Position numbers and translations under genes: made by a program. A DNA stretch of 64,000 bases, taken from the NCBI GenBank assembly GCA_050253415.1, contig JBFWJC010000001.1, positions 320,001 through 384,000 of the forward strand, in the 5' to 3' direction. The first letter of the stretch is position 1. Each line of letters opens with the position of its first letter. The DNA is from Pedobacter sp. (GTDB lineage: Bacteria > Desulfobacterota > Desulfuromonadia > Desulfuromonadales > Syntrophotaleaceae). Of this stretch, positions 14,170 through 22,014 are shown in pieces. Under the pieces are notes generated by a model, which did no database searches, was not told where the DNA came from, and worked only from the letters and a program-made list of their open reading frames with translations.

Positions 14170-15471
14170 ATGACTGAATATTTCAAGGATACCCTGGCCA
14201 ACGGACTGCGACTGGTCACGGTGGAAATGCCGCATCTGCACAGCGTCGAGATGGTCTGCCACGTCGGCGTCGGCGGACGCCACGAGCAGCACGACAAGGC
14301 CGGTATTTCACACTTTCTGGAACACATGCTGTTTCGCGGCACCCATGACTATCCCACGGGGCTGGCGCTGGAATCGGCTTTCGAGGCTCTTGGCGGCACC
14401 GCCAACGCCGCCACCGACGGCGAGACCACCTGCTACCATTCACGCCTGCATCCCGAGCACGTGGCCGAGGGCACCGCGATATTCGCCTCCCTGTTGCGCC
14501 GCACGCTGCTCAGCGATATAGACATCGAACGCCGCATCATCCTCGAGGAGGCCCTTGAAGACCTCAACGAAGCCGGCGAAGAGATCAATCCGGACAATTT
14601 GACCTGCAGCCTGCTGTGGCCGGATCACCCCTTGAGCCTGCCGACCGTCGGCACCCACGAATCGGTGCAGAACCTGACCCGCGAGGACCTACAGCAGCAT
14701 CTCGACACCTGGTACACCCCCGGCAATATCGTCATCGCCATCGCCGGCCGCGTCACCCGCGAGCAGGCCCTGGCCGCCGTCGAAGCCGCCTTCGGCGACT
14801 GGCAGGATCGCCCCGTGCCCACCGCACTGCCCGCTCCGACGCCGCTCGATAACGGTCCGTTGACCGTCTGGACGCGCGACGCCTCTTCGCAGATCCAGCT
14901 GCAACTGGCGTTTAATGTACCCGGCCGTAACGATCCGCGCACCCCGGCGCTGCGCCTGATCCGGCGCATCCTGTCCGGCAGCAGCGCGCGCCTGATGGTG
15001 CGCCTGCGGGAGCAGCTCGGACTTACCTACCATGCCGAAGCCAACCTCGGGCTGTACGACGATTGCGGCGTGTTTTCCATCGACCTCGCGGTGGCCCCGA
15101 CCAGCTTGATGCAGGCCTTGCAGGAAGTGCTGCTGATGCTGGACGATCTGCGCAACAACCCCGCCGGAGAAGAAGAACTGCAGCGGGTGGTGCGCACCTT
15201 CGTGTACGAACAGGAATTCAGCCTCGATCAGGCCGACACCCGCGCCGGTCGCTTCGGCTGGGGCGAACTGGTCGGCTATCCCCTGACCCTGGCCGAAGAA
15301 TGCCGCCAGGTGCAGGCCCTGACCGCCGCCCAGGTACGCGATGTCGCCGCCCAACTGCTCGATCCCAAGGCTCTGGCCGTGGCGTTTGTCGGGCCGTTTA
15401 ATGCGCGTCAGCGTAAAGAGGTGGAGAAGCTGCTGGCAGGGTATGTGGATAAGAAGAGCAAAGCTATTTAA
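14170..15471 (+). CDS. M16 (pitrilysin) family zinc peptidase
   Basis: HxxEH motif (GISHFLEHMLFRGT) and LREQLGLTY. Confidence 0.92.
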   Translation: MTEYFKDTLANGLRLVTVEMPHLHSVEMVCHVGVGGRHEQHDKAGISHFLEHMLFRGTHDYPTGLALESAFEALGGTANAATDGETTCYHSRLHPEHVAEGTAIFASLLRRTLLSDIDIERRIILEEALEDLNEAGEEINPDNLTCSLLWPDHPLSLPTVGTHESVQNLTREDLQQHLDTWYTPGNIVIAIAGRVTREQALAAVEAAFGDWQDRPVPTALPAPTPLDNGPLTVWTRDASSQIQLQLAFNVPGRNDPRTPALRLIRRILSGSSARLMVRLREQLGLTYHAEANLGLYDDCGVFSIDLAVAPTSLMQALQEVLLMLDDLRNNPAGEEELQRVVRTFVYEQEFSLDQADTRAGRFGWGELVGYPLTLAEECRQVQALTAAQVRDVAAQLLDPKALAVAFVGPFNARQRKEVEKLLAGYVDKKSKAI

Positions 15472-15549
15472 CCGCTGAGTACGCCGAGTTCGCGGAGATA
15501 AGCATGTGATTTAAGGATGTGCCCTCCGCGGTCTTTGCGATCTCATCGG
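15468..15549. repeat. Degenerate CGCAGAG-type 9-bp-period palindromic repeat
   Basis: AACCGCTGAGTACGCCGAGTTCGCGGAG ... CTCCGCGGTCTTTGCGATCTC. Same family as the outer arms at 63168-63422. Confidence 0.6.
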
Positions 15550-15601
15550 AGAGATGCTTGTCTTTTGGGATGGTTAGCACAGGCTTCAAACATTAGAATA
15601 T

Positions 15602-17999: not shown

Positions 18000-18008
18000 G
18001 TCTATATA

Positions 18009-18635
18009 ATGCCTATGATTGAAATTTACCCATTTGAAGATCGTGCAAAGTTAATAATAAACGGTGAAGAATGCCGAGAATTTGAACTTGATGAAATTTA
18101 CGGATTGCCTTGCTATCGCCTTGAAGGTGAGACTTCAGTTGAAGACTTGTTTAATATCCCTCTTGACAAGTTTCCGAATGATACGACATTTGAGGTCAAT
18201 TCAAGAAAGGAGATCCTTCAATACTTCAAGTTTTTCGAGTTAACAAGAAAAGGTGACATCTTTTACACATCCTTTGTTTGCTCCTTGTACCCACTCGAAT
18301 GGAGCTTTCCCTGGAACATAAATTCTTTCTTCAAAGCAATTGAAGAGGCAACATATGCCATCGCAGGCAATGGAGCCGACTTCATAAATGAGCTTGACGA
18401 GGACTTTAGTTATTATCACTTTTGTATAAATTTAAAAACCGAGGCAAACAAGGTTTGTCTTGGCGAAATCATAAAGAAGCATGTAAACACTATTAAAAAA
18501 ATACATGATTCAACCTGCTCTAAATTGGAGCGCGATAGCAAGAATGAGGACATAATAGAAATCAAACCAAACTTTTTTGGGCTTGGCATCAATGTAAATG
18601 CTCTTTTTCGATGGTTGTTCAAAAGAAATGGCTAA
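18009..18635 (+). CDS. Cassette 5: hypothetical protein
   Basis: ORF lies between GTTAGCC and GGCTAAC. Confidence 0.75.
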   Translation: MPMIEIYPFEDRAKLIINGEECREFELDEIYGLPCYRLEGETSVEDLFNIPLDKFPNDTTFEVNSRKEILQYFKFFELTRKGDIFYTSFVCSLYPLEWSFPWNINSFFKAIEEATYAIAGNGADFINELDEDFSYYHFCINLKTEANKVCLGEIIKKHVNTIKKIHDSTCSKLERDSKNEDIIEIKPNFFGLGINVNALFRWLFKRNG

Positions 18636-18734
18636 CCATTTGATCGAGCGGGACGAAAGAAAGCTGGCTGCTTCCCGAAAAATGAGGTGCTGGCCGCCCA
18701 GGTATACCGTCGCCCCTCATCAGTGACGTTAGGC
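18630..18734 (+). other. attC site 5
   Basis: GGCTAAC...ATCGAGCGGGAC...GCCCCTCAT...GTTAGGC. Confidence 0.9.
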
Positions 18735-18746
18735 GTTAAAAATTAA

Positions 18747-19166
18747 ATGAGAATCACAAAGAAAGGAAAATTTGGTTCTGAATTAATGCGACTTGTCGCA
18801 AGCAAATTGCGTCTTGGCAGAAATCTCGTCAGCAACCACCGAGATTATTGTGGCTATGGTTTGTTCTACGAAAACAATCAATATAATATGGGCATTGCTC
18901 ATGACGGCACATTTGACCAAAAAGAAATCATTCATTCATGGAACAAAACAGAAGAGTTTATAGCCTACTTTGCACCACTTACAGACTTTAAGTGCAGTGG
19001 AAAAGCAAAGGAGGAATTGTTTTCAAACGGCCCAATAGAAAATCAAAGAATAACAAAATCAAGGTTAATCGAATTTTTAGGTGAGTACGGGTTATGCCCC
19101 ACTTGCAATGAAATATTATTCAGCACAAAAGCAATACAATGTCCACATTGCAAAGTAAAATGGTAA
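18747..19166 (+). CDS. Cassette 6: hypothetical protein with a C-terminal zinc ribbon
   Basis: CPTC...CPHC at the C-terminus. Confidence 0.75.
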   Translation: MRITKKGKFGSELMRLVASKLRLGRNLVSNHRDYCGYGLFYENNQYNMGIAHDGTFDQKEIIHSWNKTEEFIAYFAPLTDFKCSGKAKEELFSNGPIENQRITKSRLIEFLGEYGLCPTCNEILFSTKAIQCPHCKVKW

Positions 19167-19204
19167 AAAACGCCTAACACTTATCAGGCCCCCGGCCGTC
19201 AAGA

Positions 19205-19700
19205 GTAAAAAATTCCGTTAACGCAAAAGATTGCTCCTTTGGTTCTTTGACAAGCGACTGATCAAACAGGCTTACCGGTCTCTGACTTGGGCTTACCCTC
19301 TGGCTGCAGACGAATTCTGCTCCAAACACTTATCGAGGCTCTTTATGCAGGAGCCGGTATTCGTTGCCCCGGTACTTCCTGCCGCCTGGAAACACTTGCG
19401 TAACCTTATGCCGTCCCATTCAATACATCGGGGTCCATCCACCTTCGATGGCCGCAGTTAGGTGCGGGATCGGGGAAGGGGCAGAATCCGGCGCTGGCCC
19501 GTTTCGAGCATCGCACGAAAGTATGTGGGAGCGAGACGGATCTCCAATCAAAACCAATTGGCTGACGCTGGTCGACTGATCATGCGGCCTTGGTTGCGGA
19601 GTCTTTGCTCCAGAAGTCTGCGCTTCATATCGGCCGTTCTTGCGATCTATCCGTGGTTTGTGTCGCCAGTTAGACTCTCAGGCTGACCCGTCCCCTCCCT
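19205..19700 (-). ncRNA. Putative bridge/seekRNA region of the IS1111-type element (RNA boundaries unknown)
   Basis: Lies downstream of the transposase and contains segments matching attC ends and the donor junction (see findings). Confidence 0.65.
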
Positions 19701-20750
19701 TCAGACGACCTTACGCAGGAATCGCTCCTGATCGAAGGGCGCTTGATTTTTAAGCATGAAATAGACCGCGCGGCCCAGGCGATGCGCGAGGATCGCCAGC
19801 GCTTTGCCCTTGCCGTAGCGACTGGCCAGTTTTTGCAACACGGCTTGCGCCGGTTTGTTGCCTTTGAGCATCATCACCACCGCCTCACCGAAGGCCCAGC
19901 GCAGGTGTGCATTGCCGATCTTCTTGCCGCTGTGTCCATAGGATTTACCGTTCGATTCCTTGGCCGGTTTGACCAACCGGCAGTAAGAGACAAAGTCCTG
20001 CACACGGGGGAACCGCGCGATATTTTCGATTTCATAGAGCATCACCAGCAAGAGGATGCGGCCGACACCGTGAATGCTTTTGAGTAGTGCCAGATTGATA
20101 GGGTCATGGCCGACTGCGATTTTCTCCAGATGCCGCTCCAGGATGCCAAGTAGATCCTCGTAGTGCTCGATGGTCGAAAGATCGACCTCGACCATGGCGC
20201 GGACAATCGGATCCTGGAACTTGGCAGGCAGATCTCCACGCTCACTCGGCTTGGCAATCCGGCCCAAAGGCTCTGGCAGATTGTACTGAGTGGCGGTATT
20301 TTGGATATGGGCATAGAGTTCGGCCCGCTTGCGCGCCAGATGATTGCGGCGTCGCAACAGGTCACGGGTGGCGCGCATCTTTTTCGGGTAGGTGTAGGCC
20401 ACCGGGAAAGATCCGCCGCGAAGCAATACGGCAATTTTGTGGGAGTCGATCTTGTCATTTTTGGCCTTGCCGCCATGGATGGCGCGCATGTAAAGCGCAT
20501 GCCCGAGGACGAAATCGATCTCCTCGTTGGCACAGAGATCGGCCAGCCAATACCAGGTGAACATGCACTCGCAACCGACAACAAGGTCTTCGCGGTAGGG
20601 TTTAATCAGGCGTAAAAAGGCCTTTGGCCGCGTCGGGATGTTCTTGTGCAGGACCACCTCGCCAACTGAATCGAGGACACATACGAACATGGCACTGGCG
20701 TGTAGATCGATGCCGCAATAGAATCGGTGCTGTTTGGTGTAAAATTTCAT
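19701..20750 (-). CDS. IS110-family DEDD transposase/recombinase
   Basis: Motifs YCGIDLH, GCEC, KNDKID. C-terminal SIHGVG, ESNGK, GNAHLRWA. Confidence 0.95.
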   Translation of the reverse strand: MKFYTKQHRFYCGIDLHASAMFVCVLDSVGEVVLHKNIPTRPKAFLRLIKPYREDLVVGCECMFTWYWLADLCANEEIDFVLGHALYMRAIHGGKAKNDKIDSHKIAVLLRGGSFPVAYTYPKKMRATRDLLRRRNHLARKRAELYAHIQNTATQYNLPEPLGRIAKPSERGDLPAKFQDPIVRAMVEVDLSTIEHYEDLLGILERHLEKIAVGHDPINLALLKSIHGVGRILLLVMLYEIENIARFPRVQDFVSYCRLVKPAKESNGKSYGHSGKKIGNAHLRWAFGEAVVMMLKGNKPAQAVLQKLASRYGKGKALAILAHRLGRAVYFMLKNQAPFDQERFLRKVV

Positions 20751-20950
20751 GGTGCAGGTTCCTTTCTTTGAGAGGGTTTCGGGTTCTCAAAGGATACCGG
20801 ATGGTCCGGTATCTGGAGGGGGCCTGCACTAGTATCAAAACTTTCAAGCGGACAGGCGACACAGTGGCACTTTCCGAATAATGTCTACCAGTTTGTTTTG
20901 CGGTGGACTGCCGCTTAAAGCAATTCGTTAAGTGGCAAGAAAGATAATTA

Positions 20951-21886
20951 ATGGCATACGAATTAAATAAACGCTTAGTTGTTGGACTCGCCTCAAGCGC
21001 CCTATTTAATCTTGAGGAGTCTGATGAAATATATCGGACAAAAGGTGCCACTGCTTACCGAGAGTTCCAGCGCGAACATCAAAACAAACCATTAGAGGAA
21101 GGCGTTGCCTTCCCATTCATCAGGCGGCTCCTTTCACTCAATGAGTTGTCCCCAAGTGACCACCCTGTTGAAGTAATTTTGCTTTCTAGGAATAGTCCCG
21201 ATACTGGCATGAGAGTGATGAACTCGCTTGAATATTATGGCTTAGGGATCACAAGATCAATCTTTCTCGAGGGAAAGCCACCGTATGTGTACATTCCTTG
21301 CCTAGATATAAATTTATTTCTGTCAGCAAATGAGGCAGATGTAAAGCAGGCTAACTTAGCTAGTTATCCAGCTGGGCAAGTCCTAACCTCAAAGCACTTC
21401 GATGATCCAAACGATCATGAATTAAGAATAGCTTTCGACTTTGATGGTGTTCTCGCTGACGATGAATCTGAGACTATTTACCAAACGACGGGCGATTTAG
21501 ATGCATTTAGGGAACATGAGAGAAAACTAGCAGAAACCCCGCACAATCCAGGGCCACTTAAGGATTTTCTTGAAAAGATCGCTTACATACAAAAGCTTGA
21601 GGAAACACGGGCAAGTGAAGATAGTTCCTATAAAACTAAGATAAGAATATCAATTGTAACAGCAAGAGACGCACCATCACACAAAAGAGTAATTAACACT
21701 ATGAGAGCATGGGGGATTAACGTAAATGAGGCGTTTTTTCTTGGTGGCATCGAAAAAAGAAAAGTTCTAGAGGTGCACAATCCCCACATATTCTTCGATG
21801 ATCAAAAGCTTCACCTAGAGTCAGCGTCAGAGGTATTACCATCCGTCCATATTCCTTTTGGAATAACAAACAACAAAGTCACTTAA
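20951..21886 (+). CDS. Cassette 7: 5'-nucleotidase (cN-I type HAD)
   Basis: Motifs LVVGLASSALF, LSRNSPDTG, LRIAFDFDGVLADDESE, VTAR, PHIFFDDQ. Confidence 0.9.
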   Translation: MAYELNKRLVVGLASSALFNLEESDEIYRTKGATAYREFQREHQNKPLEEGVAFPFIRRLLSLNELSPSDHPVEVILLSRNSPDTGMRVMNSLEYYGLGITRSIFLEGKPPYVYIPCLDINLFLSANEADVKQANLASYPAGQVLTSKHFDDPNDHELRIAFDFDGVLADDESETIYQTTGDLDAFREHERKLAETPHNPGPLKDFLEKIAYIQKLEETRASEDSSYKTKIRISIVTARDAPSHKRVINTMRAWGINVNEAFFLGGIEKRKVLEVHNPHIFFDDQKLHLESASEVLPSVHIPFGITNNKVT

Positions 21887-21999
21887 CAATAAAATCAGCC
21901 GGACGGAAAATACGTCTGCGCTAAATTGAAAAGCAAAACCTAAAATTGCGGTGGTGGCCGAACCTTAGGGTCGCCGCCGGTTATCATGAACCGTTCGGC
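21881..21999 (+). other. attC site 7
   Basis: ACTTAAC (complement of the preceding GTTAAGT)...ATCAGCCGGAC...GCCGGTTAT...GTTCGGC. Confidence 0.88.
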
Positions 22000-22014
22000 T
22001 TAAAGGAATTCTAG

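Follow-up and report, generated by a model that had tools for sequence, protein, structure and literature searches.

The 64,000-nucleotide (nt) window of Pedobacter sp. DNA analysed here (positions 320,001 to 384,000 of contig JBFWJC010000001.1, assembly GCA_050253415.1) contains an array of integron cassettes in which one attC recombination site is split by an insertion sequence (IS) of the IS1111 type. The region lying 3' of the transposase gene (tnp) probably encodes an RNA that guides insertion of the element at the TG core of attC sites, with a target-binding loop, here called module 1, followed by a donor domain that includes a further loop, module 2. The principal features, numbered from the first letter of the window, are as follows.

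19180-20835, minus strand: insertion sequence of the IS1111 type (1656 bp, and one 2-bp core copy in addition)
19178-19179 and 20836-20837: the copies of the core, CA on the plus strand and TG on the transposase strand, the junctions being read from the sequence
19701-20750, minus strand: transposase gene, 349 amino acids (aa), with a DEDD/RuvC-like N-terminal domain and a Transposase_20 C-terminal domain (Pfam)
19180-19700, minus strand: non-coding region downstream of tnp, 521 nt, putative template of the guide (bridge or seek) RNA, with conserved blocks and compensatory stems
19185-19193: copy of the subterminal inverted repeat at the right end, plus-strand sequence CAGGCCCCC, pairing with 20818-20826
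20818-20826: copy of the subterminal inverted repeat at the left end, plus-strand sequence GGGGGCCTG
19172-19178, plus strand: R'' box GCCTAAC of the invaded attC, left of the IS
20836-20933: remainder of the invaded attC (AAACTTTCAAGCGGACAGG ... GTTAAGT), right of the IS, with R' GTTAAGT at 20927-20933
16772, 17893, 18632, 21883, 22576, 23761 and 24449: neighbouring attC sites with the same layout

Boundaries and target of the element

The limits of the IS, 19180-20835, are set by three observations. Another copy of the element in this genome, with 79% identity, stops aligning exactly between GCCTAACA and CTTATCAGG at one end and directly after CTAGTATCAAAA at the other; the ends TG-ATACTAGTGCAGGCCCCC and GGGGGCCTGATAAG-TG are common to 16 close homologues; and an uninterrupted attC-like site elsewhere in the genome (locus L003) reads GCTAACAAGAATTTCAGGCGGACAG. 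Rebuilt without the IS, the invaded attC reads GCCTAA-CA-AAACTTTCAAGCGG, in the layout shared by at least seven further attC sites of the array. The IS is inserted at the CA/TG core, directly beside the R'' box of the cassette attC.

Both domains of the transposase place the element in the IS110/IS1111 superfamily, the Pfam matches (PF01548, E 1.9e-15; PF02371, E 7.9e-17) lying past the curated cut-offs in each case. Within the superfamily, the IS1111 group is described as having a long non-coding region downstream of the gene and a transposase of 330-350 aa (PMC11187229). For the inverted repeats of the group, a subterminal position and a length of 7-17 bp were applied as the criterion. In the present element the 9-bp repeats CAGGCCCCC and GGGGGCCTG sit 5 and 9 bp inside the IS ends and are conserved or co-varying in homologues, 521 nt lie downstream of tnp as against 85 nt upstream, and the protein has 349 aa. 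At the C-terminal motif GL-P----S(t)G the window protein has RLVKPAKESNGK, in which S-x-G-K is conserved and the spacing does not follow the published pattern exactly; relatives carry ESGGK or ESAGK at this position, with Pro replaced by Cys in several.

Insertion in attC is orientation-specific across the family. Among the 16 close homologues, 10 of the 11 readable left flanks and all right flanks are attC-like, with GTCCGCTTGATnnnT-TG on one side and TTAGnn on the other, and the target in transposase orientation can be written as ...GTCCGCTTGATnnnT-TG-TTAGRn. In a larger collection of 93 right flanks, the leading tetranucleotides were TTAG (46), TTAT (14), TTGG (13) and TTCG (9).

Guide segments of the non-coding region

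Homologues were collected by a scan of species-representative genomes, which gave 80 loci with transposase identities of 54-93%, and by a metagenome scan that gave 80 more; multi-copy genomes were also mined for further insertion sites and added few copies (3-6 per genome). Homologous non-coding regions were aligned in sets of 15 close sequences, 56 in the main counts and approximately 56-127 more widely, while the tests against target flanks were based on 32 loci at first and later on 73 left-flank and 92 right-flank sites. Permutation tests treat the insertions as independent, although related IS in related hosts share both guides and attC types. In nearly all loci the three blocks recur downstream of tnp in an unchanged order. 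In the window these blocks contain the following elements.

19528-19699, minus strand: module 1, target-binding loop domain with outer stem, internal loop and inner stem-loop
19669-19676, minus strand: right target guide of module 1, AGUCUAAC, consensus CGYCUAAC
19667-19675 in plus-strand numbering: minus-strand motif GUCUAAC-UG, with GUCUAAC at 19669-19675
19549-19557, minus strand: left target guide and core of module 1, UUGGUUUUG, in the same sense as the left flank plus TG
19547-19548, minus strand: AU after the module 1 core, identical to the two bases that open the IS left end and read as a handshake-like extension
19544-19551, minus strand: UUGAUUGG, in the 3' strand of module 1
19404-19484, minus strand: module 2, a second loop with the target-loop format, inside the donor domain
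19455-19463, minus strand: ACCUAAC-UG of module 2
19457-19464 and 19419-19429, minus strand: strands of module 2, CACCUAAC (5') and GAUGUAUUG followed by AA (3')
19416-19423, minus strand: UUGAAUGG of module 2
19389-19398, minus strand: candidate right donor guide CAAGUGUUUC, family form nnnn-G-UUUC, evidence moderate
19327-19334, minus strand: left donor guide and core GAUAAG-UG (GAUAAGUG), followed by UU at 19325-19326

Five of these motifs had been picked out by a first-pass annotation of the window, which described the same module as occurring twice, followed by a donor guide, and which conceded that matches of 5-8 nt might be due to chance. All five were found on the minus strand at the positions it gave. 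Each short motif, taken alone, is indeed at chance frequency within the window: RYCTAAC was observed 14 times (15.75 expected), CTAACTG 3 times (3.28 expected) and TTGAWTGG 5 times (7.42 expected). The donor 10-mer AACACTTATC behaves differently, with two occurrences (19176-19185 and 19325-19334) as compared to 0.03 expected, and none of 100 shuffles contained it twice. The shorter motifs are considered real, despite their chance counts, because they are conserved in some 50 homologues and placed in the loops of stems supported by covariation. The segment CUAAC is present in module 1 of 45 of the 56 homologues and in module 2 of 49, and module 1 ends in UUGAUUGG or UUGAUUAG in 48/56 (UUGAUUGG itself in 42/56). 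The repetition of the module is real and family-wide, and conservation raises the motifs above the chance level that they show singly in the window.

The structured nature of the region was assessed on the alignments, where conserved blocks, compensatory stems and covariation of the guides all bear out the earlier suggestion of a structured guide RNA downstream of an IS1111-type transposase. Module 1 begins 2-5 nt past the tnp stop codon. For the full 170-nt module, aligned with MAFFT, RNAalifold returned no consensus structure, and the stem was then tested with a structure set by hand. In its outer stem, GGAGGGGGCGGAUC with GAUCCGCCUCGCUCC, enclosing the internal loop, 80.6% of alignment cells are paired, as compared to 72.9% after shuffling and 43-49% with the partner slid, and 69 cells show double changes against 20.1; neither the pairing value nor this count was reached in any of 500 shuffles. 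The loop has CGYCUAAC-U as its 5' strand and, as its 3' strand, a variable stretch followed by UUGAUUGG. In module 2 the outer stem pairs CCGAnCCCG with yGGGACGG, compensatory pairs being carried by 6-21 sequences, and in the loop a hairpin separates nnnCUAAC-U, the 5' strand, from nnnnnUUGAnU, the 3' strand. Both modules are located in internal loops whose stems show compensatory changes. RNAalifold further predicts that a helix GCGAU/GUCGC closes one large domain holding module 2, a further hairpin and the GAUAAGUG block, an arrangement which fits a published remark that the donor-binding bases of IS1111 RNAs lie in a multi-loop (PMC11208160).

Two other segments of the region were considered. 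The sequence GGAGGGGGC after the stop codon was rejected as a reader of the left inverted repeat, being a stem strand that changes freely with its partner across lineages. The motif GAAAnnAAGUCAGA (19290-19310 in the window) is conserved some 40-50 nt 3' of the donor guide and, when checked against the IS ends, followed neither.

The right target guide of module 1, CGYCUAAC, is complementary to core-G plus TTAGRCG on the transposase-sense strand. When 354 alignment windows were compared for complementarity to the right target (RT) flank, modules 1 and 2 provided the two best (0.74 and 0.66; third best 0.49), in agreement with the earlier proposal that the CUAAC segments read the R'' box. At the 92 right-flank sites the 5' strand of module 1 covaries with RT positions 3, 4 and 5 (z 3.4, 2.9 and 3.0). 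For example, at locus L079 the module 1 sequence GGUCAAAUAC is a perfect 9-nt complement of G plus TATTTGAC, which is not an attC flank, and at L020 module 1 has GCACCUAA against the flank TAGGTGT. These two loci represent a lineage retargeted away from the TTAG box, with right flanks starting TA (TAGGTGTT and TATTTGAC); its module 1 right guide, donor extension (UA) and module 2 (CUUAC) have all changed to suit.

The left target guide was sought by comparing each 6-nt alignment window with the six flank bases before T-TG, scored as same-sense identity. For 32 sites, the two highest-scoring of 348 windows were those lying directly 5' of UUG in module 1 (z 3.73) and, next, in module 2 (z 3.01). 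With 73 sites the module 1 window gave 183 identities as compared to 124.1 expected, a z of 7.04 that becomes 4.04 when flanks are shuffled within lineages, and it was the top of 371 windows, the next reaching 3.66. Contiguous matches of 7-8 bases are seen at L127, L146, L160, L192 and L196; in the present window GUUUUG of module 1 corresponds to the flank GTTTTG. These comparisons support a left target guide formed by the variable 6-8 nt directly 5' of UUG, abutting the core with no spacer skipped.

Variation in the core and at the IS ends allows the conserved UUGAUUGG motif to be parsed. Three loci (L028, L150 and L193) have GG in place of TG at the left-end junction and correspondingly UGG-AU in module 1; in L028 GG is found in the donor guide and right-end junction as well. 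The two bases after the module 1 core equal the start of the IS left end in 32/32 loci (31 AU/AT and one AA/AA, the latter in the AAGATC lineage) and in every row of the 73-locus table too. Since UG tracks the junction core and AU the IS left end, the motif is read as U, core UG and AU. By sequence comparison, module 1 is a target-binding loop with both a right and a left guide.

The donor domain carries, at 19327-19334, the sequence GAUAAGUG, identical to the IS end plus core at 19178-19185 and, as GAUAAG-UG, having the sense of the IS right end and core. Right ends and guides vary together in the family.

Right end GATAAG: guide GAUAAG
Right end TATAAG: guide UAUAAG
Right end ATAGG: guide AUAGG
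Right end ATACG: guide AUACG, or AUAUG with a U.G pair
Right end ATAGA: guide AUAGA
Right end ATATG: guide AUAUG

In a scan of 354 windows this segment had the top identity to the IS end (0.88), with z 8.33 in the shuffle test as compared to 4.73 for the next best. Right IS ends were located partly by means of the guide match, so that the counts of end matches are partly circular, and the shuffle test serves as the control. The covariation (AAG, AGG, ACG/AUG, AGA and AUG types) supports the assignment of GAUAAGUG as left donor guide made in the first-pass annotation, and the match is, at 10 nt, longer than was claimed there. The UU that follows the guide core (19325-19326) is identical to the dinucleotide with which the right target flank begins; this extension is UU in 148 motifs and UA in L020 and L079, the two loci whose right flanks start TA. 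Both left guides, of target and donor, thus carry a 2-nt extension, AU and UU respectively, matching the partner DNA after recombination.

For the right donor guide a candidate can be proposed. The segment nnnn-G-UUUC, approximately 60 nt upstream of the left donor guide, would be complementary to core-G plus the IS left end, apart from a U.T mismatch at the second position. Exact 6-mer complements of the IS left end had no consistent place in the region. The 4-mer 5' of G-UUUC, on the other hand, is often complementary to left-end positions 5-8 (AUUA/TAAT, AUGA/TCAT, AUA/TAT, CAU/ATG) and is the best of 368 windows (z 7.81; background under global shuffles up to 6.36), and 7/9 positions match in many rows of several left-end types.

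A proposed mechanism and the role of module 2

These elements can be combined into a mechanism in which the IS would insert by RNA-guided, site-specific recombination at the TG core beside the R'' box. The region would be transcribed with or after the transposase gene and fold into three modules. In module 1, the 5' strand CGYCUAAC would pair with the transposase-sense strand of core-G plus TTAGRCG, and the 3' strand would present a variable guide of 6-8 nt in left-flank sense, then U-UG (core) and AU, the last a handshake-like extension matching the start of the IS left end. In the donor domain GAUAAG-UG would read the IS right end and core, with its UU extension corresponding to the start of the right flank, and the weaker candidate nnnn-G-UUUC would complete the domain as right donor guide. 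Module 2 (nnnCUAAC ... nnnnnU-UG-An), lying in the same domain, would serve either in target binding, as a second loop, or in reading the right-end junction. At the level of sequence comparison, the data demonstrate the assignments of the module 1 guides and of the left donor guide. Expression and processing of the RNA and its binding by the transposase are suggested by analogy with IS621 and ISKpn4.

Since module 1 and the donor domain account for the four canonical guides, the right donor guide as a candidate, module 2 represents a third loop. That it is a second target-type loop we put at somewhat short of an even chance, and the best reading of the sequence data makes it a duplicated target loop which would read mainly the invariant, core-proximal part of attC; its use we infer. 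The identity of module 2 to the left flank has a z of 4.07, reduced to 2.06 (P 0.02) within lineages at the 73 sites, and its variable 6-mer is nearer to that of module 1 in the same element than to those of other elements (182 as compared to 132.5, standard deviation 7.9). On the 5' side, the strand covaries with RT position 3 alone (z 3.0; 92 sites). CUAAC is replaced by CCAAC in a lineage with the six right flanks TTGG (two), TTGT (two), TTCG and TTAG, and by CUUAC in the lineage with right flanks starting TA. A match of the module 2 3' strand to the left flank at any offset, as spacer skipping would produce, gave a z of 1.29 in a test of low power, in which module 1 itself reached 2.27. 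More tentatively, the whole may be a natural three-loop bridge RNA, with a hard-wired second target-type loop inside the donor domain and a mirror-image handshake through the AU and UU of the left guides.

A number of observations weigh against these interpretations. The left guide of the window's own module 1 matches its flank over just six contiguous, T-rich bases, and the candidate right donor guide matches at 5/9 positions in the window's own lineage and 4/9 in GAUUC variants. A search of 18000-22000 against Rfam (E up to 1) matched no family, and the minimum free energy of the whole 524-nt region was not below that of shuffled sequences (z +0.93), a measure which is uninformative for a GC-rich RNA of several domains. 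The z-values quoted are inflated because related copies share guides and attC types, and background windows climb to z 5-6 under global shuffles. As regards module 2, its expected window lies outside the top eight in a column-anchored scan of 371 windows on the larger set, and its post-core bases match the IS left end in 7/32 loci. Its left-flank signal is weak within lineages, as noted, and module 2 reaches a z of no more than 1.81 at sites poorly matched by module 1; and where the left-end junction core is GG, in three loci, it retains UG or AG.

Two alternatives concern the region as a whole. The motifs might be chance occurrences in a non-functional spacer, or the region might encode a small protein on the other strand; the chance frequency of the short motifs in the window and the existence of plus-strand open reading frames of 71-76 aa would be in keeping with this, but the stems are conserved by compensatory changes, indel lengths in the family alignments are not divisible by three and the guides covary with flanks and ends, making it extremely improbable. 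Scarcely more credible is the model of the first-pass annotation itself, whereby each module combined a segment reading the R'' box with a UUGAU or UUGAA that paired, across a skipped spacer, with the L'' box of one attC variant. The motifs do exist, attC sites of the array have ATCAA and TTCAA shortly to the right of the R'' box, and 7 of the 10 left flanks of the close group hold TTGAT or TTGAA at that distance. However, TTGA[TA] is missing from the last 12 nt ahead of the core in 24 of 32 targets, and 19 of the 24 elements concerned nevertheless keep UUGAUUGG or UUGAUUAG. The former is nearly invariant (42/56) whatever the attC type, its UG becomes GG in the three loci with a GG left-end junction core, and the AU after UG follows the IS left end, being AA in the AAGATC lineage. 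Moreover, the flank-matching signal sits in the variable bases 5' of UUG, in register with the core, rather than beyond a spacer. Of the proposal of two loops for two attC variants, there stand one clear target loop and a conserved second loop; the tuning to ATCAA as against TTCAA is unsupported.

The remaining alternatives differ in the function given to module 2. It may be a fully working second target loop, used alternately or jointly with module 1 so that one recombinase reaches more of the degenerate attC family, or the two loops may bring an occupied junction together with a fresh target, as an IS110 element is reported to do by 'direct transfer'. This we consider somewhat less likely than not. 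The loop has the format of module 1, conserved family-wide, and is the second-best RT-complementary window; the CCAAC form goes with TTGG and TTGT flanks and CUUAC with flanks starting TA; and the left-flank identity and the resemblance of the 6-mer to that of module 1 point in the same direction, as does a preprint describing a target-loop-only RNA that cooperates with a full bridge RNA (10.1101/2025.10.25.684509). Against it stand the low within-lineage z, the low z at sites which module 1 matches poorly, the failure to follow the GG core, and a complementarity to RT of 5 nt with no covariation past position 3; the likeness to the module 1 guide may also reflect host base composition. Alternatively, module 2 could be a scaffold arm of the donor multi-loop, its loop bases binding the transposase or reading the right-end junction (donor end plus TG plus TTAG) during excision. 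A position within the donor domain, flanked by the closing helix GCGAU/GUCGC and the donor guides, would suit such a role, as would a conservation limited to the core-proximal bases CUAAC and U-UG-A, and, together with the UU extension of the donor guide, module 2 would read both strands of the right-end junction. IS1111 bridge RNAs have been described with donor-binding bases in a multi-loop (PMC11208160). A pure scaffold, however, would not be expected to show the above-chance identity to the left flank seen in the variable 3' strand, and we consider this alternative rather unlikely. The duplicated target loop remains the interpretation preferred here.

Relatives, known systems and implications

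Several known systems may be compared. The seekRNAs of the attC-targeting elements ISKpn4, ISPst6 and ISPa25 co-purify with their transposases (PMC11187229) and measure 82-86 nt, with long forms of 148-151 nt (review PMC13604230, Table 1). With this IS1111-attC group the present family shares subterminal inverted repeats, a downstream non-coding region and insertion into attC in one orientation, and, as in the ISKpn4 group, an RNA segment matching the top strand lies 5' of one matching the bottom strand, the two overlapping at the crossover (PMC11187229). The known IS1111-attC elements, however, insert at TTGAA*CG, about 6 bp from GTTAG according to Table 1 of the review, whereas the present family inserts some 6 bp away from that point, at TG directly 5' of TTAG; and in contrast to seekRNAs of 82-86 nt (PMC13604230), it has a conserved, structured region of approximately 520 nt with a third loop. 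A DNA search of PLSDB found no similar plasmid except for five environmental records, and in a protein search of the same database transposase identity was at most 29% for all but two of the matches listed.

The bridge RNA of IS621 has a loop architecture and handshake guides (PMC11208158). As there, two guide pairs can be assigned here, one of them with a candidate right donor guide, each reading one strand on either side of the 2-bp core (PMC11208160, PMC11208158), the left guide is in top-strand sense and includes the core, and 2-nt handshake bases match the partner DNA (PMC11208158). The first core position is also tolerant in both, with TG and GG in the present family and CT, GT and others in IS621. 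Unlike that of IS621 as there described, the present RNA lies 3' of the gene with its guides in reversed order (right guide 5', left guide 3'), its handshake-like bases are appended to the left guides and not, as in IS621, to the right ones (PMC11208158), and its donor guides are placed in a multi-loop along with an extra loop of target-loop format. No description of a bridge RNA with two target loops was found in the literature searched. For CazIS110-1, a pathway combining a target-loop-only RNA with a full bridge RNA is reported in a preprint (10.1101/2025.10.25.684509), and a reaction using two target loops is therefore conceivable. As in that system, there would be two target-type loops per recombinase and a suggested transfer from junction to new target; in CazIS110-1 the second loop repeats the first in truncated form and is borne by another RNA, whereas module 2, recognised here from sequence, is a distinct, hard-wired loop with a sequence of its own. 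What was already known, then, is the guide mechanism and the seekRNAs of attC-targeting IS1111 elements; the insertion point and the conserved third loop appear to be new.

Further copies of the element and its relatives show some variation. The second copy in the same genome (L002; contig 16, 1049-2725) lies in another attC, flanked by GCCTAACA and TAATGAAGCGGACGG, and has the three RNA modules conserved. At L061 two adjacent copies (L061:1-600 and L061:2600-2910) each have approximately 149 bp duplicated in tandem, from the donor-guide block through to the right end. Where the two repeats meet, the sequence is GATAAG-TG-TTTGG, as though the right end had undergone recombination with the donor-guide DNA, and in the upstream copy GUGAUUGG replaces GUGUUUGG. 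A relative that is 49% identical, on a Salinivibrio kushneri plasmid (L207; NZ_CP114591.1, 177244-180980), has an internally deleted transposase gene. It retains module 1 and a diverged module 2 (GAUAAC ... UUUUUGAAU) beside an attC-like TTAAGCG flank, and its donor guide UAUAUG-UG matches its own end CATATG-TG. Genome G001, with four full copies, also contains three right-end-only IS fragments (L088, L089 and L090) of some 200-490 bp beside attC-like flanks. These are reminiscent of the 'footprints' of IS1111-attC elements reportedly noted by Tetu and Holmes in 2008.

Other features of the IS concern its transcription.

19197-19202, minus strand: putative -35 hexamer TTGACG of a junction promoter, with CTCTTGAC conserved in the family alignment
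20831-20836: putative -10 GATACT, contributed by the other IS end in the circular form, at a spacing of 18 nt inferred by reading

A candidate promoter would be formed by these two hexamers across the joined ends of the circular IS, as read from the sequence. The right IS end and the attC R'' box together (19172-19189) make up an inverted repeat, GCCTGATAAGTGTTAGGC, and a run of T comes after it on the minus strand; the structure was scored as terminator-like in a consensus scan and could end the guide transcript in the integrated state.

As for the surroundings, the G+C content of the IS is higher than that of the cassette array around it. No tyrosine recombinase gene is present in the 64,000-nt window, the nearest such domain lying approximately 47 kb outside it, and the array may be an attC cluster without an integrase. 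An M16 peptidase is encoded left of the array (region 14170-15600), while the cassette immediately downstream of the invaded attC (20951-21886) encodes a protein of the 5'-nucleotidase family (PF06189, E 9e-126).

RNA-guided recombinases of the IS110/IS1111 type are under development as genome editors, and their natural diversity is a source of designs. The present family, found in many environmental genomes and metagenomes, provides a comparative demonstration of programmability, in which guides track flanks, core and ends, and in which one lineage has been retargeted off attC with a perfect 9-nt guide. The family attacks attC at a point other than that used by the known IS1111-attC elements. 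If the third loop is indeed a target loop, it would let one recombinase address more than one class of site within the degenerate attC family or, alternatively, would synapse the element's own occupied junction with a fresh attC, permitting direct transfer with no circular intermediate. A functional third loop would offer a precedent in nature for bridge RNAs that address several targets or read junctions, and would show how a guide system handles a target family that is both degenerate and structured. For integron biology, the family represents a further widespread class of element that splits cassette recombination sites in chromosomal arrays.

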